From a virus (Duplodnaviria; Heunggongvirae; Uroviricota; Caudoviricetes): DNA of 25,860 bases. Under the pieces are notes generated by a model. The model was not told where the DNA came from. It saw only the letters and a program-made list of their open reading frames with translations, and did no database searches. The stretch is taken from the IMG/VR virus record IMGVR_UViG_3300045988_049160. One strand, written 5' to 3'. The translations under genes were made by a program, and so were the position numbers. Position 1 is the first letter of the stretch. Every line of letters starts with the position of its first letter. Below, in pieces: positions 2,170 through 24,428 of this stretch.

Positions 2170-2434
2170 TTACATCGCACTCCTCTTGTGCCATAGTAAT
2201 CGGGCACTGGCAAAATCCAGTGCCGGGATTGGTCTCCCGGATTACTACAGAGGCACATATGCCGCATAAGCGGTTTTTTTATGTGTAAAGCGCACCTATT
2301 CTATGGTGGGCTGTGTGGGGGCACCGAAAGGTGCGCCGGGTTCCTTTGTAGCCGGTAAGACCAACTCTGCACAGTTCACCACCATCTGATTGGTCTCAGC
2401 GGTGGTGATTAACCTAACTACAAAGGTGATCGCT

Positions 2435-3127
2435 ATGAATACCAAACCTTCCATCTTTTCCTTTGAGTCATCCTGCCAGATCCGTATGTTCATGATTGAC
2501 GGAGAACCTTGGTTTGTCACCAAAGATGTGTGCAATGCTTTGAATATTGATGTTACACAAGCGAGAAAACTTGATAAAAAAGGCTGGAACAAAAAGGGGC
2601 TGTATTCAATACAGACCCCTGGTGGAATACAAGAACTATCCATCGTTTCAGAATCAGGTCTCTACATCCTTATTCTGCGTTGCAAAGAGGCAATGACTGA
2701 GGGAACGAGAGCATTCAGATTTCTTGAATGGGTTACAGGTGAGGTTCTTCCTCAGATCCGCCGCACCGGAAGTTACATTAAAAACTCGCTCCCGCAGGAA
2801 GAACGCATAAAGATGGTTGCCGACCAGGTAGCCAACGCCACGGCGTCAGCAGTAATGCAGGCAATGAAGATAGAGAACAAAACCTACAGTGCCCCGCTGA
2901 AGCCCGGCTACCGCAGCCTGATTCATTCGCCGTCTGGTGTTCTCGGCCTGACGGAGAACTCACTGCTGATGAATCTGCTGAACCAGTTACAGGACGACGG
3001 GCACGACGTATCGGGCGCGGCGGCGGAGCTGACCACCATGTTCTGCTACATCGTCGGTGTGAGCAAATGCCTGCGTGATATCCAGACCCACGCGGAGTAT
3101 ATCAACGACAAAGCAGGGTTCTTCTGA
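2435..3127 (+). CDS. Phage antirepressor-like protein with Bro-N N-terminal domain
   Basis: ATG at 2435 with AGGTGA RBS; N-terminal region FESSCQIRMFMIDGEPWFVTKDVCNALNI...GGIQELSIVSESGLYILILRCKEA matches the remembered Bro-N/antirepressor pattern; C-terminal domain duplicated in the 1031..1288 protein. Confidence 0.6.
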   Translation: MNTKPSIFSFESSCQIRMFMIDGEPWFVTKDVCNALNIDVTQARKLDKKGWNKKGLYSIQTPGGIQELSIVSESGLYILILRCKEAMTEGTRAFRFLEWVTGEVLPQIRRTGSYIKNSLPQEERIKMVADQVANATASAVMQAMKIENKTYSAPLKPGYRSLIHSPSGVLGLTENSLLMNLLNQLQDDGHDVSGAAAELTTMFCYIVGVSKCLRDIQTHAEYINDKAGFF

Positions 3128-4328: not shown

Positions 4329-4340
4329 GTGACATGTCAC
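4329..4340. repeat. 12-bp perfect palindrome GTGACATGTCAC (copy 1 of 4), overlapping the lipoprotein stop codon and adjacent to the terminator
   Basis: Exact sequence; identical copies at 21728-21739, 22120-22131 and 24386-24397. Confidence 0.8.
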
Positions 4341-18408: not shown

Positions 18409-18701
18409 TCCTGTTCACTGGCCTCTTTGGCCATCTTCAAATACTGTTCAGGGCAATGCGCCATAACGCGCTGAAACAGTTCCAGCGCCAGATTGCGTTG
18501 CCCCTCATTAAATGCCATTGCCATAGCGTCCATCGGTGAGATAGCGGAAAACACACGGCCTTTCTCCAGCACCGACCAGACAACGCGACGCCCCTGTTCA
18601 CTGCTCATGACAAAGCAAATGTCATCAATTTCACGCTGTGCCATGTCACGTTGCTTACGGGCGTTTTCTTCTTTCAGTTGATCGTCTTCGTAATCTGTCA
18701 T
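18405..18701 (-). CDS. Hypothetical head-assembly-associated protein (98 aa)
   Basis: Translationally coupled between portal and scaffold. Confidence 0.4.
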   Translation of the reverse strand: MTDYEDDQLKEENARKQRDMAQREIDDICFVMSSEQGRRVVWSVLEKGRVFSAISPMDAMAMAFNEGQRNLALELFQRVMAHCPEQYLKMAKEASEQE

Positions 18702-20377
18702 TGTGATTGCCCACCCTGACCACTAACTGCATTCGCCATAGCTGACAAAACACTCGGATCCGAAGTTTTAGCTTCGCTTAGCGTCTTGGCACCCTGTGCC
18801 GCCGCCATCCCCATCGCCATCATTTGTTGCTGCTGTTGTTGCTGTGCCCGTTGCTGGCGAGCCTGCTCAACCTGTTCCTGCGGAACAATGACGGTTGGAG
18901 ACACTCCGGACATATCAGCGAATGCATCGATCGCCTGATCAACGTTGAGTTTGTCGAGAGCTTCTGGTTTCGCTTGCGCAAGTTGACCAATGAAGTTGAC
19001 CGTAGACGCCAGACTGGACAGGCCGATAGACTTCTGCGCCTGAGCCATGACGGAAATGTATTCGACCTTCAGGGGCATACCTTCCATCGCGTCAGGCGGT
19101 GGCGGCAGCATGTTTTTACGCACCATCATCGAGAAAGCGCGGTCAATGAGAGGATTAAGACATTCGTCGTTCAGACGCTCCAGAACCGGCCCCAACATCA
19201 GAAGTTTTTCTTCTTTCATTTCGATCACCGCTTCAACAGGCATCGAGCGGGTATTGATGTTCTGCAACATCATGAACAGATCGACAAAGTAGGCGCTGTT
19301 AATGATTTGACGGGTGTCCTGAATGTCTGCCACCAAATCTGCTGTACTGGGGTTAACCAGATAAGCAGGCCTGAAACCATCCTGACCAGTAATCTGATCG
19401 ATATACGTGATGTCGCCAGGAAGAAGGGAGGCACGCTGATTCTTGAGGGAAGTCGGAGCAACCATCGGCGGATTGGTGGCTTTATCAATCAACTGCGACT
19501 TGCGCTTCTGGAGAAGCTGCAATGCCTTAACAGGTCCAAGCGCCAGCATACCCGGGCATGATGATCCATAAACATCTTCGCCGTTAACTTCCCAGCGCGG
19601 AGCCATAATTGGAAACTCATCGAATCCGGACTCACGCAACAACTTGTCGTTATCGCCACCAACCTCGTAATAAACCGATTTGAATGGCTTGTTCTTGCTA
19701 TCCAGCTTCGATGTATCGCGGTCAATGTTCGGGTAAACCGAATGCATCACTTCAATCCACTTCTCGTAGGTTCCGCTTTCCCACATGCTTTTTACGGATT
19801 CGCTGACGTTATTTAGCCCGAACTCCTGAACAAGCTGACGAACAGTCATAGAGAACTTGCGAAAACAGGTGTCCACACTGCCACGAGGTGAGTTAGCCAG
19901 GTAGTAACTGCCTATCGGGAATGGCATTGTGCGAATGATGTCCTCGTCATCCTCCAGCACTGCCATTGCACCAGTGCTGTATGTGCCGAGGCTTCCGTAT
20001 AACTGCGGCAGCGACTGATAGAGATTCGACTTATTGAACATATCGTTCATGCGGTTCTGCACCGCCTCAAGCCACAACTTAACAGGGCCATAATCCATCA
20101 TTTCAGGATCTGGCGTAGCCAGGCGAAACCACGGACGCGCGGGGCTTGTGATGCCTGACATCATGCCGCTGGCGAGAGTGCGCGCCGCCATAGTCCCGGT
20201 CGAATCAATAATGCGTGTATTGCGTCGATCGTTACGGTTGACCTCAGAAGTCAGAAAGCGGGAACCACGCGGGTTGATGTAATCACTCAACTCGCGCCAG
20301 TGCGGCTCGAACGACTGACGCTCGCTTTCAAGTTGTGCGAACTGTTTGTTCAATCGCTCTTTAGTTGTTTCCGCCAT
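18698..20377 (-). CDS. Portal (head-to-tail connector) protein, T7 gp8-like
   Basis: 559 aa; N-terminal region LNKQFAQLESERQSFEPHWRELSDYINP...TGTMAARTLASGMMSGITSPARPWFRL parallels remembered T7 gp8 (YERLKNDRAPYETRAQNCAQY...VGARGLNNLASKLMLALFPMQTWMRL); Gln-rich C-terminus QQRAQQQQQQQMMAMGMAAAQG also gp8-like. Confidence 0.75.
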   Translation of the reverse strand: MAETTKERLNKQFAQLESERQSFEPHWRELSDYINPRGSRFLTSEVNRNDRRNTRIIDSTGTMAARTLASGMMSGITSPARPWFRLATPDPEMMDYGPVKLWLEAVQNRMNDMFNKSNLYQSLPQLYGSLGTYSTGAMAVLEDDEDIIRTMPFPIGSYYLANSPRGSVDTCFRKFSMTVRQLVQEFGLNNVSESVKSMWESGTYEKWIEVMHSVYPNIDRDTSKLDSKNKPFKSVYYEVGGDNDKLLRESGFDEFPIMAPRWEVNGEDVYGSSCPGMLALGPVKALQLLQKRKSQLIDKATNPPMVAPTSLKNQRASLLPGDITYIDQITGQDGFRPAYLVNPSTADLVADIQDTRQIINSAYFVDLFMMLQNINTRSMPVEAVIEMKEEKLLMLGPVLERLNDECLNPLIDRAFSMMVRKNMLPPPPDAMEGMPLKVEYISVMAQAQKSIGLSSLASTVNFIGQLAQAKPEALDKLNVDQAIDAFADMSGVSPTVIVPQEQVEQARQQRAQQQQQQQMMAMGMAAAQGAKTLSEAKTSDPSVLSAMANAVSGQGGQSQ

Positions 20378-20391
20378 TTCAATGACTCCGG

Positions 20392-20598
20392 TTACTGACC
20401 AAGCAGCGTTTTACCGCTGGTATTAGCGGTTGATGTGTCGCCCTGAGAACCGGTAAGCAGCGTAGAACTACGACCAGCAGCAGCGCGACGGCGACGAGTT
20501 TCTTCGTCGCGGGCATCAACAACGGCGGCATCCTGCTCCTGTGGTGCTGCCTGAACTTCTGGTGTTGCAGGCACTGATGGTGAGCTACCCATGCACAT
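20392..20598 (-). CDS. Small Ser/Thr/Arg-rich virion protein, T7 gp6.7-like (68 aa)
   Basis: Starts MCMGSSPSVPAT..., basic and Ser/Thr-rich, directly upstream of portal; GGAG RBS; chosen over the overlapping 20379..20618 frame. Confidence 0.35.
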   Translation of the reverse strand: MCMGSSPSVPATPEVQAAPQEQDAAVVDARDEETRRRRAAAGRSSTLLTGSQGDTSTANTSGKTLLGQ

Positions 20599-20687
20599 AT
20601 CAATGACTCCGTACGCAATTAAATTATTACCAATTTAACCACATATGATTTATTTATCGTAGGTAGTTGACATTTAACGCACAAATT

Positions 20688-20704
20688 ATTACCTTTCAGG
20701 TAAC
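20688..20704. promoter_or_regulatory. Putative operator ATTACC-TTTCA-GGTAAC (copy 5)
   Basis: About 90 bp upstream of the gp6.7-like start, in the region where the structural operon must restart after the plus-strand moron insertion. Confidence 0.35.
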
Positions 20705-21025
20705 CAAAGAGTTCATTCCGGTTACTAACCTGACTGGCTTGTCGTTAAATTGAACAGGTGGAGTGAGCTTTTATTTTGAGCAGTACGGCGTATGGCACAT
20801 GCGCCGATAGCGGTCTGGATACGTTTAAGGGGCACCCTCCCTGGCTGTGGCAAACGAACCAGGTAGCCGGAATGTGCAAGTCGAGCGGTTTTATTCCGCG
20901 CACGGGGATTCACCATCCCGGCGATTCGGTGTGACGCCTCGGAAGAGACGAGGGTACAACGATGAGAGCATTTATGGAGCCGCGACAAAGTGTGGCGCCT
21001 TAACAGGCTAAGTGCTCTCAGCGTT

Positions 21026-21102
21026 GTGGCATTAGCTCAGCTGGACAGAGCAACCGCTTTCTAAGCGGTTGGTCGCAGGTTCGAATCCTGCATGCCACGC
21101 CA
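21026..21102 (+). tRNA. tRNA-Arg (anticodon UCU)
   Basis: 77 nt with CCA; acceptor stem GTGGCAT/ATGCCAC, D-arm GCTC/GAGC, anticodon stem CCGC/GCGG with loop TTTCTAA, T-arm GCAGG-TTCGAAT-CCTGC. Related to but not identical with remembered E. coli argU. Confidence 0.85.
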
Positions 21103-21146
21103 GAATCACGCCTAAGGACCGTGATGCCAGAAGTTCCAGGGGCTTG

Positions 21147-21188
21147 GCGGTGATGGTTTCCCTTGAAGGACTATCACCGCCCTTTTTA
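21147..21188 (+). terminator. Rho-independent terminator downstream of the tRNA
   Basis: GGCGGTGAT...ATCACCGCC 9-bp stem followed by CTTTTTAC. Confidence 0.55.
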
Positions 21189-21265
21189 CAGCATGACGCC
21201 ATTGCGATGGCTTCATGCTGTAAACCAGTACAGCCACGGAAGGCATAACTCATTGCTTCCAGTTC

Positions 21266-21290
21266 GCCCGATTCGCCGGGCATTTTTTTT
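21266..21290 (+). terminator. Terminator-like hairpin plus T8 immediately 5' of gene A (GCCCG-ATTCGC-CGGGC-A-TTTTTTTT)
   Basis: GC stem and T8 run ending 10 nt before the ATG at 21301; the same cassette is duplicated before gene B. Confidence 0.4.
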
Positions 21291-21300
21291 AGGTGAGATC

Positions 21301-21723
21301 ATGAAAACAGCCGACATGCTAGCTAAATATCTAAATGAATGGCCGTGCAAATATGTACGCATTGTTCAGGGTGATGACTCAATTTTTTATGGTGTTTTTG
21401 CAGGAAATGAAATGCTTTGTGAAGCAATTCCAGGTGAGCGACTTGCCGGGTTAACGCTTAGCGATGACCATGGAATAGGAGTTACTTGCCATGACTGGAT
21501 TTCAGCGCAGAAAACTGAAATGGAAAAAGGCAATGTGTTTGATATTTCTCGCGCTGTATACGCCAAAGAAAAAAGTGATGATGATTACATGCGCGAAAAC
21601 TTATACAACATGAAGTTACAATGCCTGGCTGAAGTGCTTAGTAAAAGATCTTTACTTGATGTGGTTGGTGCTGAGCAGGACGCCAAGGCAATCAACGCCG
21701 CATTCGATAAAATAACCTTCTAA
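21301..21723 (+). CDS. Hypothetical acidic protein (140 aa), moron gene A
   Basis: ATG at 21301 preceded by AGGTGA; the track start at 21163 would run through the upstream terminators. Opposite orientation to the flanking structural genes. Confidence 0.55.
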   Translation: MKTADMLAKYLNEWPCKYVRIVQGDDSIFYGVFAGNEMLCEAIPGERLAGLTLSDDHGIGVTCHDWISAQKTEMEKGNVFDISRAVYAKEKSDDDYMRENLYNMKLQCLAEVLSKRSLLDVVGAEQDAKAINAAFDKITF

Positions 21724-21744
21724 CGCCGTGACATGTCACAATCA

Positions 21745-21771
21745 GCCCGCCGATTCGCCGGGCATTTTTTT
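21745..21771 (+). terminator. Rho-independent terminator after gene A (GCCCG...CGGGC then T7), also the leader of gene B
   Basis: Hairpin at 21745-21763 followed by T7, then AAGGTGA RBS and ATG at 21784. Confidence 0.5.
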
Positions 21772-21783
21772 AAGGTGAAAATC

Positions 21784-22116
21784 ATGAAAGAGAAGACTGC
21801 AGCTGAGCGCTATGCCGCAGCTATCAATGCCGCGATGGCGATTGTAAACCTGCGTGAAGAGATTAAAGATCTCCTTGCAATTATCCATAACAACCTGACA
21901 TGTACAGAGTTGCTTGGCGGTCAGTACAACGGTGAGGCGGTGAAGGAGGCATTTAAAAATGCCGAGGTAGGAATAATTCCAGCAAACTATGTCAAGGCTG
22001 AATGTGTGCTCCTAAAGGCACGAGTGAGTCTGCATGAAGATCCTGGTAATCTCGGTCGAACTGCAATGCGTTACGTGATAGACGAGTCGAATGCCAAACA
22101 CAATCTACCGAAATAA
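21784..22116 (+). CDS. Hypothetical protein (110 aa), moron gene B
   Basis: ATG at 21784 with AAGGTGA RBS; 5' leader almost identical to that of gene A. Confidence 0.55.
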   Translation: MKEKTAAERYAAAINAAMAIVNLREEIKDLLAIIHNNLTCTELLGGQYNGEAVKEAFKNAEVGIIPANYVKAECVLLKARVSLHEDPGNLGRTAMRYVIDESNAKHNLPK

Positions 22117-22135
22117 CACCGTGACATGTCACAAA

Positions 22136-22162
22136 CAGCCAGCCTATGAGCTGGCTTTGTTT
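22136..22162 (+). terminator. Rho-independent terminator after gene B (AGCCAGC-CTATGA-GCTGGCT then TTGTTTT)
   Basis: Perfect 7-bp stem followed by a T-rich tract. Confidence 0.6.
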
Positions 22163-22206
22163 TATCCTCACCAGAGGATATCAACGACATTATCCCCACC
22201 AGCGGA

Positions 22207-23682
22207 TTAAGCATAGGGATCGTAATCTGTGATGGCCTTGCCTTGCTGGTTCTGCTGACCGGGAATTCGCAGACGCTTAGACACAGGGAACGCAAACGTC
22301 AGCAGTAGCGCATCGCCTTTACCCGGTGAACGCCCAAGCCGCTCCTTGATATCTTCCTTCGGTTCGATAACGATTTTACCGTCCACTCGAACTTTGTACT
22401 CTGCCGCCGACAGGTCGTCTGCTGTTTCCTGGTCATCCAGCATGCCGCCCAGCCTCAGCCATGTCTTGCATGAATTGAACATCTCCCCACGCTTGTTGAG
22501 CATCTGCGGGTCAGTAGACGCGCCACCGAACGGAACAAGTTGCCATGTACGACCCCAGCCGTCACCGATTGACTTCAAACCGGTTCCGTAACCGAAGTCG
22601 ATGAACACCGCGTCAGCCTGATACTGGTCTTCAAAGTCAGCGATACGCTTCGCCATAATCAGATCGTCGGTAGTCTTGTTGCCAGTCCACAGCACCTTAC
22701 TGTGTAGCCCCTGCCGCAGGTATATCACAGCGTCATCAACGCCGGAGTATGCCGGGTCAACGCCGATTATCACCGGAGCATGTGCAACCTGCGCAGCGGT
22801 TACCACCCGTTTCATTGCCTCGTCAGTAAGACCGGTAGGGATAAACTGCAATTCAGATGCATCAGGGAATATGCCACGCACACGGATTTTAACGAAGTCG
22901 CTGTCTTCCCCGTAGTCATCAACCCATTTCTGCAACTGCTGTTTGTTAGTGCCTTCCACCGTCCGGCTGTCAATCTGCGCAGTTTTCCAGCGGTGTTTAT
23001 ATTTGCGGAAACATTCGCGAAAACGCCCGGTGTTACGTGTAGGGTTTCCGAACGCCACCCAAATAATCTCAGTGTCTTCGTCCGTAAGCGCACCCTCGGC
23101 AACTTCCCACACCAGATCCGCAATGTTCGACGCTTCATCAAACACCACGATGATGCGTTTGCGCTCGTTGTGTAGTCCGGCGAATGCCTCGGTGTTGTGC
23201 TCAGACCAGGGTATTGCGTCAGCCCGCCACCGCTTGTCGTGCCCTAGGTCATTGCTGTACATCGCGGTAGCGGTACAGGTAAACCAGTCTTTCGTGATAG
23301 CAAGGTTCGACCACTTGATAATTTCCGGCCAGGTCTTCGTTCGTAGCTGGTTGTCGGTGTTGGCGGTCACCACGACCTTACAATCCTCGCAAGTGGACAT
23401 GCCCCAGTTGATCAGCATTGAGATGAATGCGGATTTACCAATACCGTGACCAGAAGCGCGTGCCAGCATAAGCGGCTGATAGCGCGTCTCTGGATTCTGC
23501 AGGTGATCACGTATCTCTCGGAACGCATCAGCCTGCCACTGACGTGGGCCGGTGGCATGTGCCAGTTCAGTCCCCTCTTCCCCCCATGGGAACGCATAGA
23601 GGGCATAGCCAAGCGGATCGTGAGTGAACCCTGCAATATCCTCGATTAACTGCTCTTCAGGAGATAACGCTGTATCTGTCAC
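22207..23682 (-). CDS. Terminase large subunit (ATPase plus nuclease), GTG start
   Basis: 491 aa; Walker A-like ARASGHGIGKS; Walker B-like IIVVFDEAS; C-terminal nuclease-like segment VIIGVDPAYSGVDDAVIYL. GTG at 23682 overlaps the terS TGA; AGGA RBS. Confidence 0.85.
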   Translation of the reverse strand: MTDTALSPEEQLIEDIAGFTHDPLGYALYAFPWGEEGTELAHATGPRQWQADAFREIRDHLQNPETRYQPLMLARASGHGIGKSAFISMLINWGMSTCEDCKVVVTANTDNQLRTKTWPEIIKWSNLAITKDWFTCTATAMYSNDLGHDKRWRADAIPWSEHNTEAFAGLHNERKRIIVVFDEASNIADLVWEVAEGALTDEDTEIIWVAFGNPTRNTGRFRECFRKYKHRWKTAQIDSRTVEGTNKQQLQKWVDDYGEDSDFVKIRVRGIFPDASELQFIPTGLTDEAMKRVVTAAQVAHAPVIIGVDPAYSGVDDAVIYLRQGLHSKVLWTGNKTTDDLIMAKRIADFEDQYQADAVFIDFGYGTGLKSIGDGWGRTWQLVPFGGASTDPQMLNKRGEMFNSCKTWLRLGGMLDDQETADDLSAAEYKVRVDGKIVIEPKEDIKERLGRSPGKGDALLLTFAFPVSKRLRIPGQQNQQGKAITDYDPYA

Positions 23683-24345: not shown

Positions 24346-24428
24346 GTATTCAAAACCCATCAAATTCATCATGCATAATCTACTCGTGACATGTCACGCT
24401 ATTAATTTCGTTTCATGCCAGCCTTTAG

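Follow-up and report, generated by a model that had tools for sequence, protein, structure and literature searches.

An exchangeable cassette slot between terminase and portal of Uetakevirus phages, at the end of an apparently repressor-controlled tRNA unit

The junction between terL and portal

The DNA analysed here, called the window at its full length of 25,860 nucleotides (IMG/VR record IMGVR_UViG_3300045988_049160), comes from a temperate Escherichia coli phage of the phiV10/epsilon15 type, genus Uetakevirus; the conserved parts of the locus under study are 97-98% identical to phages phiV10, PAS61, ZX5 and TL-2011b. Our subject is the interval of 1.83 kb that separates the stop of terL (22207) from the start of the portal gene (20377). 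Between terL and a gp3-like gene, its plus strand holds a tRNA-Arg(UCU) gene and two small genes, A and B. In the reading that we favour, and hold with moderate confidence, the stretch from 21026 to 22162 forms the variable 3' end of a plus-strand transcription unit, complete in itself, which is found in Uetakevirus phages in the space from gp3/portal to terL. The order of the unit is: a candidate promoter/operator, a leader RNA of about 250 nucleotides (nt), the tRNA-Arg(UCU), three hairpins, and a slot for cargo genes. The genes of the junction are the following, with lengths in amino acids (aa) and isoelectric points (pI).

20377-18698, minus strand: portal gene
20392-20598, minus strand: gp3-like gene of 68 aa (phrog_831)
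21026-21102, plus strand: tRNA-Arg(UCU), anticodon TCT, CCA encoded (ARAGORN; Rfam RF00005, 71.1 bits against a gathering score of 29)
21301-21723, plus strand: gene A, open reading frame (ORF) of 140 aa, acidic, pI 4.8 (phrog_4846)
21784-22116, plus strand: gene B, ORF of 110 aa, pI 6.8 (phrog_27507)
23682-22207, minus strand: terL, with its stop at 22207
24353-23679, minus strand: terS

The tRNA, the two genes and their shared leaders and trailers had been described in the original prediction, and this anatomy was confirmed, coordinates included. That account of the interval, as some 1.8 kb of plus-strand cargo, is right for the tRNA, A and B, but it overlooked the minus-strand gp3-like gene and about 430 nt of conserved non-coding DNA that lie 5' of the tRNA. 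It also assumed that terL and portal are normally adjacent; this is false for the Uetakevirus lineage, whose common ancestor already had the tRNA unit and the slot.

A shared frame around two different genes

Genes A and B stand in the same regulatory frame around different payloads, as had been claimed, and the identities of leader and trailer bear this out. The leaders (21268-21296 and 21750-21778) are 97% identical over 29 nt, and each copy has a GC hairpin, a run of eight or seven T, the Shine-Dalgarno (SD) sequence (A)AGGTGA, and ATGAAA. The trailers (21721-21770 and 22114-22163) are 78% identical over 50 nt, each with a perfect palindrome of 12 base pairs (bp), GTGACATGTCAC, which has five sites in the window against 0.08 expected. 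The borders are laid out as follows.

21266-21300, plus strand: first copy of the leader, the universal left border of the slot, with hairpin GCCCG/CGGGC (21266-81), T8 (21283-90) and SD AGGTGA (21291-96)
21724..21783, plus strand: junction of A and B, where the trailer of A (CGCC, palindrome 21728-39, AAUCAGCC) is joined, within a chimeric hairpin at 21745-63, to the leader of B (T7 21765-71, AAGGTGA 21772-78)
22117..22164, plus strand: right border of the slot, with CACC, palindrome 22121-32, AAACAGCC, hairpin 22137-56 and UUUGUUUU, facing the terL stop at 22207

In relatives, the conserved stretch runs from the tRNA through the leader hairpin, there GCCCGG-UUCG-CCGGGC, and its T-run, and the variable DNA begins after AAGGTGAnAU; for many cargoes, variability stops at stop-CNCC-GTGACATGTCAC-AAWCAGCC-hairpin. 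This right border is common to cassettes that carry A, Gp49, Tad2-like proteins and a 61-aa protein. Its sequence is found in 232 of 5426 complete E. coli genomes, and the annotation of phiV10 lists it as a terminator that serves the opposite strand. Conservation of the leader extends over several genera, as can be read from miscalled, N-terminally extended ORFs of Klebsiella and Pseudocitrobacter that contain '..GHFFKVKIM'.

These borders delimit what would be one cargo unit: SD (AAGGTGA), ORF, stop, GTGACATGTCAC, and terminator hairpin with its T-run. Since the borders are shared between phages, homologous recombination across them would swap ORFs precisely. If so, the leader, ORF and trailer form a portable frame for the exchange of small early genes among widespread temperate enterobacterial phages.

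From its placement, the palindrome GTGACATGTCAC appears to mark sites of convergent transcription. A module composed of a stop, GTGACATGTCAC, a hairpin and a T run ends the late operon, at 4329-4340 on the minus strand of the window and at 19493 in phiV10, beside an annotated terminator. Two further copies were seen: one at 24386-24397, 33 nt upstream of terS, where its centre would fall near -22 of a weak minus-strand -10 TAGATT, and one with a single mismatch at 18638-18649.

One slot, many cargoes

The relatives examined came from E. coli (prophages as well as phages), Salmonella (SPN9TCW), Klebsiella (two phages), Enterobacter and Hafnia (prophages in both). All of them have a plus-strand unit at this junction: the insertion is not peculiar to the phage of the window, since unit and slot are present in every Uetakevirus relative examined. 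The content of the slot comprises at least 10 unrelated families, and the cargoes observed are these.

A alone, or a 143-aa variant of A
a 61-aa protein that corresponds to the C-terminal module of A only
A with Gp49, or Gp49 (PF13876) alone
B alone, or B then a gene of 82-84 aa
a 115-aa repeat protein
low-GC membrane/coiled-coil proteins of 201-296 aa
a 138-aa membrane protein; proteins of 122 aa and 99 aa
Tad2-like proteins

Backbones with flanks that are 97-98% identical carry A, the variant of A, A with Gp49, Gp49, the 61-aa A-tail protein, the 115-aa repeat protein, or the 201-296-aa membrane/coiled-coil proteins. B occupies the same slot in the relatives examined, and in those from Salmonella, Klebsiella, Enterobacter and Hafnia the slot persists, filled with other cargo. 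Judged by this comparison, the cargo consists of dispensable, fast-turning-over accessory genes, and the idea of opposite-strand accessory cargo in a fixed junction of the backbone finds support in the same slot being filled with other genes, and never with a co-oriented structural operon.

Tad2 is a phage protein that sponges the signalling molecule of the Thoeris defence system. In one IMG/VR locus (L129), a 98-aa Tad2-like protein (PF11195, 85.7 bits against a cutoff of 25, E=3.2e-24) lies between a leader and a trailer identical to those of A and B, and Klebsiella phage ST512-KPC3phi13.3 has a 173-aa Tad2-like protein in the slot (E=4.2e-26). In other E. coli prophages, among them L005 (3171-3230), L009 and L010, a cargo of 201-296 aa with a GC content of 0.33-0.36 replaces the usual trailer and the 3' end of terL.

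The Hafnia prophage (L148/L149, 2969-4460) has three or four plus-strand genes, of 98, 124, 109 and 55 aa, the second of which is a member of the A family. These genes begin about 165 nt past gp3, which leaves insufficient room for the leader RNA of about 250 nt and the tRNA.

The seam between A and B

The junction of the two genes reads TAA-CGCC-GTGACATGTCAC-AATCAGCC-CGCCGATTCGCCGGGC-ATTTTTTT-AAGGTGAAAATC-ATG. Its left half is the trailer of A as found in loci L004 and L003 (GCCCGCCGATTCGC..), and its right half is the leader of B as found in prophages in which B comes first, L139 and that of E. coli BCE049 (..CGGGCATTTTTTTAAGGTGAAAATC). In prophages that have A only, or A with Gp49, the trailer of A itself is GCCCGCCGATTCGCGGGC followed by a T run. 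The B-only prophage of BCE049 matches the window at 99.3% identity over about 21750 to 22208. The pair A and B was found in none of the 5426 complete E. coli genomes, where the sole locus covering at least 80% of the query carries A with Gp49.

Because the junction is a chimeric terminator hairpin, we take B to have been stacked behind A by recombination, and the second leader is probably the seam left when the B cassette was placed behind the A cassette. Recombination between the look-alike terminator hairpins of two cassettes would give A followed by B with the leader twice. The repetition of leader and trailer had been read as duplication of a regulatory cassette; the repeats are indeed there, but they are better described as a universal left border plus the seam of a stacked B cassette. 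Recombination within look-alike terminator hairpins would thus offer a concrete mechanism for the formation of multi-gene accessory arrays.

Exchange is not confined to the slot. The promoter and RNA core of the BCE049 prophage are 97% identical to those of the window, with a module of about 270 nt that replaces the tRNA; modules 5' of the slot must therefore be exchanged as well.

The proteins A and B

Clustering at 90% identity yields 111 clusters for the family of A and 15 for the family of B. By sequence conservation these are real, conserved protein families: both are maintained as proteins across genera, with intact frames and a strong extended SD at a fixed distance. A is present in 118 of the 5426 complete E. 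coli genomes and B, at a coverage of at least 80%, in two.

Neither protein has a recognisable motif, as had been noted before: searches with Pfam, PADLOC and PDB sequence profiles, one of these for B, detected no relative of A or B. Pfam was equally uninformative on the longer or more distant members of the A family and on the second genes of the B loci. An exhaustive profile search for remote homologues of A, in 1.84 billion proteins, found 29 representatives at 50% identity, none of them informative. As far as sequence searches reach, then, no homologue of A or B with an established function or fold could be detected. AlphaFold2 gave a model of B that was too poor to search with (pLDDT 51).

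In protein A, a variable alpha/beta domain at the N-terminus precedes an invariant helical hairpin at the C-terminus (..ENLYNMKLQCLAEVL..D..A.AINAAFDKITF). All invariant residues of the family are in the C-terminal module, and the N-terminal domain exists in several unrelated versions. The hairpin may be a docking module for swappable N-terminal effector domains.

The C-terminal helix of A (AEQDAKAINAAFDKITF, window 21655-21720) resembles the N-terminal helix of B (AERYAAAINAAMAIV, 21787-21855). The likeness is weak (hhalign probability 41%, E=3e-4, 23 columns; 72% identity of the DNA over 32 nt), and may reflect a shared module or an old recombination point.

A, and perhaps B, could serve the lineage's own packaging or virion biology, for instance if the C-terminal hairpin of A docks on portal, terminase or capsid and the variable N-terminal domain is an injected effector. 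The family is tiny, as the 29 representatives indicate, and lies between portal and terL at every locus examined, in Uetakevirus-like prophages of Escherichia, Salmonella, Citrobacter, Klebsiella, Enterobacter and Hafnia; its conserved C-terminal module with unrelated N-terminal domains fits the same idea. However, the genes are dispensable: near-identical phages lack A or have unrelated replacements, and A is found in fewer E. coli genomes than the right border (118 against 232). Moreover, neither A nor B has any similarity to a structural or packaging protein. We consider this role improbable.

Promoter, operator and hairpins

A promoter scan of 20300-22400 returned no promoter-like site, and hence no sigma-70-like promoter between the tRNA and the genes. 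The features that precede the slot, and the sites of the operator-like palindrome, are the following.

20667..20703, plus strand: candidate promoter and operator, with -35 TTGACA (20667-72), a 17-nt spacer, a weak -10 TACCTT (20690-95) and, overlapping it, the perfect palindrome TTACCTTTCAGGTAA (20689-20703)
940, 2060, 2153, 3213, 20689 and 24293, also 6456 and 11476, in the window: sites of the operator-like palindrome
21105-25, plus strand: conserved AUCACG hairpin, after the tRNA
21146-21181, plus strand: terminator 1, then U5 (-22.8 kcal/mol)
21185-21224, plus strand: 18-bp hairpin (-24.1 kcal/mol)

For the operator-like palindrome, TTACCTNNNAGGTAA, the window has eight sites where 0.64 would be expected; besides the perfect copy at 20689, another perfect one and one with a single mismatch lie just 5' of the isrK/C4/Bro-N antirepressor module. 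In phiV10 the palindrome is found twice in the intergenic region between the repressor (p40) and cro-like (p41) genes, and also before early operons, the C4/ant region, int, and the present unit. This placement, in the repressor/cro-like region and before early units, is why we take the palindrome to be probably the operator of the phage repressor. The tRNA and cargo would then form one of several repressor-controlled early units. Since the operator overlaps the sole upstream promoter candidate, early rather than lysogenic expression is suggested: A and B would be produced once the repressor is gone, upon infection or induction. The membrane-protein cargoes of L005, L009 and L010 have their own operator-like palindrome (TTACCTTAAAGGTAt and similar) beside TATAAT in their 5' regions, which is consistent with repressor control.

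A moron is an extra gene unit in a phage backbone that has its own promoter and terminator and is expressed from the prophage. That label had been given to A and B, and part of it is apt: they are extra genes at a differently filled junction, with hairpins and T-runs downstream (21745-63 and 22137-56), but no promoter of their own was found directly upstream, where each has just a terminator hairpin and an SD. As classical morons, A and B would be lysogenic-conversion or superinfection-exclusion genes, expressed from the prophage and insulated from the late operon by their orientation and terminators. The genes do run opposite to that operon with terminators on both sides, and other occupants of the slot, the membrane/coiled-coil proteins of GC 0.33-0.36, look like exclusion or abortive-infection proteins. 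Against this, no promoter-like site accompanies A or B, the only upstream candidate carries a perfect copy of an operator also found in the repressor/cro region, and even the membrane cargoes have that operator in their own 5' regions; furthermore, the Tad2-like cargo in the same frame belongs to a counter-defence family from the phage side. Classical morons are thus an unlikely description, though a likelier one than a packaging role.

Assuming that transcription starts at the candidate promoter, the polymerase that leaves 20667 meets terminator 1, the 18-bp hairpin, and the leader hairpin with U8 before A, and a further hairpin with U7 before B. The three hairpins that follow the tRNA (21105..21224) are kept in all relatives, including those that lack the tRNA. 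Fold energies are -10.0 kcal/mol for the leader hairpin (21266-21281), -10.4 kcal/mol for its second copy and -13.5 kcal/mol for the hairpin at 22137-22156. The suggestion that expression of A and B depends on read-through is reasonable on this layout; the polymerase would read through the tRNA-distal hairpins into A and B.

A structured leader RNA

The unit is headed by a conserved structured RNA (20780-21027), which the first description missed along with the candidate promoter/operator upstream.

20780..20955, plus strand: core of the leader RNA, with helices P1, P2/P2b, P3, P4 and P5, two proposed pseudoknots, and covariation
20956..21027, plus strand: long stem that closes the element; its arms, 20956-74 and 21009-27, form inverted repeat I1 (19 nt, 89% complementary) and enclose an insert that varies

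The core is about 170 nt long, and its invariant blocks include UAUGGCACAUG, GGUAGCCGGAAUGUGCAAG and GGAAGAGAC. In an alignment of 31 diverse copies (A4), 96.1% of the cells are paired, against 30-44% when partners are slid, and 16 pairs have compensatory changes; none of 500 shuffles reaches the observed values. The two proposed pseudoknots differ: PK1 has no variation in the alignment, and PK2 a single type of compensatory change. The closing stem folds at -38.5 kcal/mol, its arms covary between lineages around an insert that ranges from about 34 to 110 nt, and its 3' arm, with a boxA-like UGCUCU(C/U), extends right up to the tRNA's first base.

The RNA matched nothing in Rfam 15, at gathering scores or at E<=10, and neither it nor the slot turned up in the literature, which was searched by sequence and by topic. 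The nhmmer program finds one copy in the window (20781-20955, E=1e-37). Window positions 20785-21032 are about 82% identical to unannotated DNA of the lambdoid phages cdtI, mEp460 and 2H10 and of several Stx2 phages, and positions 20785-20947 are about 79-80% identical to P1, P7, D6 and SJ46. Matches to one part or another of the locus exist in about 1085 of the 5426 E. coli genomes; 658 records at 80-90% identity seem, from the rows sampled, to match the leader RNA alone. At least 120 IMG/VR contigs contain the invariant 19-mer GGTAGCCGGAATGTGCAAG, as do 24 loci of species-representative genomes, nearly all of them Enterobacterales (Citrobacter, Kosakonia, Klebsiella, Phytobacter, Erwinia and others). 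The exact 19-mer was also seen in two short contigs of metagenome-assembled genomes labelled Bacillota and Lachnospiraceae (L155 and L168; 1.7 and 3.1 kb), probably by binning contamination.

Two contexts outside Uetakevirus deserve attention. In cdtI and 2H10, the RNA follows a promoter TTGACA-16-CATAAT (11/12) with an overlapping 17-bp palindrome, just 3' of cI: by its surroundings, the site corresponds to PL/OL, which is the place of nutL in lambda and of putL in HK022. No N gene is annotated or recognisable at the PL position of these two phages, and the genes that follow are not N-like. In P1 and P7, the core comes directly after tRNA-Ile, in the C1-controlled tRNA-ban operon.

Several explanations of the RNA were discarded. 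A protein-coding reading fails, since small ORFs over or after the RNA are not conserved and the helices covary in the presence of indels whose lengths are not divisible by three. A peptide rich in arginine and resembling N was seen after the RNA in one lineage only. The RNA does not seem to be homologous to HK022 put, as the nhmmer profile of the alignment gave only a chance match (E=0.9) on HK022 20000-40751, inside nun. Nor is it a C4 RNA (RF01695), whose covariance model has no match at 20590-21310 even at E<=10; the two share short motifs only, a UUCCUU-type loop, GUAGCCGG and UUCACCA. The window does contain a C4 RNA elsewhere: positions 2204-3127 of the plus strand hold isrK (74.7 bits), C4 antisense RNA (78.6 bits; 2299-2386) and then a Bro-N antirepressor, which looks like an immI module of the P1 type behind two copies of the operator. 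The sequence just 5' of isrK contains GUGCCAUA, complementary to the P1 loop of the leader RNA, UAUGGCAC.

Terminators occur within 900 nt 3' of the RNA in 32 of 34 tRNA contexts; elsewhere the count is 37 of 91, against 34% in controls, so that a general enrichment of terminators downstream of the RNA was rejected: it holds in tRNA/Uetakevirus contexts only. This lends something to the view that the hairpins just end the tRNA unit, and that the genes beyond are poorly expressed hitchhikers whose shared borders are the residue of ordinary mosaic recombination; terminator 1, with -22.8 kcal/mol and U5, and the leader hairpin, with U7-8, look functional. Silent DNA, however, would not be expected to keep many cargo families, including a bona fide anti-defence family, in an exact frame, nor ORF families conserved across genera with intact frames and a strong extended SD at a fixed distance. 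We regard such hitchhiking as very improbable, the least probable account of the slot among those considered.

Of the possible roles of the RNA, the one that best ties it to a slot laden with hairpins is that of a cis-acting antiterminator. By analogy with put, it might be a processive antiterminator that enables read-through to promoter-less cassettes, a tentative proposal that we think possible and somewhat doubtful; it might otherwise act as a C4-like antisense or anti-SD RNA, serve as a scaffold for processing, or be a leader that senses a ligand. If the proposal were true, the RNA would be a candidate early antitermination device of lambdoid phages without an N gene at PL (cdtI, 2H10, mEp460 and several Stx2 phages), and would represent a new class of phage elongation-control RNA that is also part of the tRNA-ban operon of P1 and P7. 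In any case, an unannotated, strongly covarying RNA, present in perhaps a fifth of E. coli genomes and always behind what we infer to be repressor-controlled early promoters, makes early elongation control testable in lambdoids with no N gene at PL.

The tRNA

ARAGORN and Rfam agree on the tRNA-Arg(UCU) that had been proposed. L139 and BCE049, otherwise near-identical prophages, have the tRNA-less module of about 270 nt in its place; since such relatives exist, the tRNA is dispensable. Of every 1000 codons in the genes of the window, 4.5 are AGA, a figure that rises to 8-12 in ant and some of the tail genes; for E. coli the average is about 2. As usage exceeds that average, it is plausible that the tRNA supplements codons.

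Some details of this region were recorded. The module of about 270 nt takes the place of the tRNA at the same junction, ..GUUGUGG| (seen in the stretches 1190-2035 of L146, the BCE049 prophage, and 2036-3000 of L139), and starts with a 5-bp hairpin that has a covarying stem and a conserved, boxB-like GGCUGA loop, shortly downstream of a boxA-like UGCUCUUU. At position 32 of the tRNA (window 21057), the U32 of the window (CCGCUUUCUAAGCGG) contrasts with C32 in phiV10, in ECONIH1 and in the relatives from Klebsiella and Salmonella.

What A and B may do

The presence of a Tad2-like, anti-Thoeris gene in the identical frame of a relative leads us to favour A and B as, most likely, early-expressed counter-defence or host-takeover proteins. 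The anti-defence role first proposed for them is thus plausible, given the Tad2-like genes of L129 and of the Klebsiella relative. The whole reading, in which a repressor-controlled unit ends in swappable cassettes of early accessory genes, is in our judgement a probable one, by a modest measure.

Several points weigh against it. The candidate promoter is below the threshold of the scan and its -10 matches at 3 of 6 positions, so that we infer a promoter rather than observe one. Two hairpins that resemble intrinsic terminators (21146-81 and 21266-81) and a third strong one separate this promoter from A, and with three hairpins in the way the expression of A may be very low unless termination is suppressed. 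The function of A and B is argued from position alone, and the confinement of the A family to this slot of one phage lineage, at every locus examined, could instead indicate a lineage-specific phage function. Finally, the low-GC membrane/coiled-coil cargo, with its operator-bearing promoters, looks more like exclusion or abortive-infection genes; because of this resemblance, the slot should be seen as generally accessory, not purely anti-defence. Still, with one occupant from an anti-Thoeris sponge family, the others (A, B, Gp49/PF13876 and several more) offer a short, ranked set of proteins without a known fold that are candidates for counter-defence or takeover.

Comparison with known systems

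The slot is a phage accessory-gene hotspot of a known type. Like the lambdoid morons, the defence hotspots of P2 and P4 and the anti-defence clusters, it has a fixed position between core genes, a rapid turnover of unrelated small genes, and immune or counter-immune cargo, here the Tad2-like PF11195. It differs from them in that each ORF is framed by a shared SD-bearing leader and a stop/palindrome/terminator trailer, and in that the cargo, itself without a promoter, allows tandem stacking and ends a tRNA unit whose candidate promoter carries the probable repressor operator.

Integron cassette arrays are alike in their promoter-less ORFs with palindromic elements, placed head to tail behind a common promoter, and in the differing arrays found at the same site. 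The slot was nevertheless rejected as an integron array: there is no adjacent IntI or attI, the neighbours being gp3/portal and terL, and the only integrase of phiV10 is of the P4 type, about 25 kb away. The borders, a 12-bp palindrome and a hairpin, have no attC core sites, and the junction of A and B, a chimera of two homologous hairpins, resembles a product of homologous rather than site-specific recombination.

HK022 put RNA and the nut sites of lambda are cis-acting antitermination signals just 3' of early promoters (PMC9378689), and a put-like mechanism has been suggested for a related lambdoid phage in which N is missing (PMC12315714). The leader RNA is alike in its position after a PL-like promoter/operator in cdtI and 2H10 and, here, in lying 5' of terminator-like hairpins. 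It differs in size and form: put has about 70 nt and two stems, against a core of about 170 nt with two proposed pseudoknots, one copy per genome and no sequence homology.

The C1-controlled tRNA-ban and immI (c4-icd-ant) operons of P1 and P7 are similar as scattered, repressor-controlled early units with tRNA genes and a processed leader non-coding RNA; the scattered C1 operators of P1 resemble the scattered operator-like palindromes of the window. P1 and P7 have the same structured RNA core directly after tRNA-Ile, and the window likewise has its isrK/C4/Bro-N module behind the same operator as the tRNA unit. In P1, however, the repressor and the operator sequence are different, the RNA follows the tRNA and precedes ban, and no cassette slot is described. 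What sets the present locus apart is thus its precisely framed, stackable, promoter-less cassettes at the end of an apparently repressor-controlled unit.

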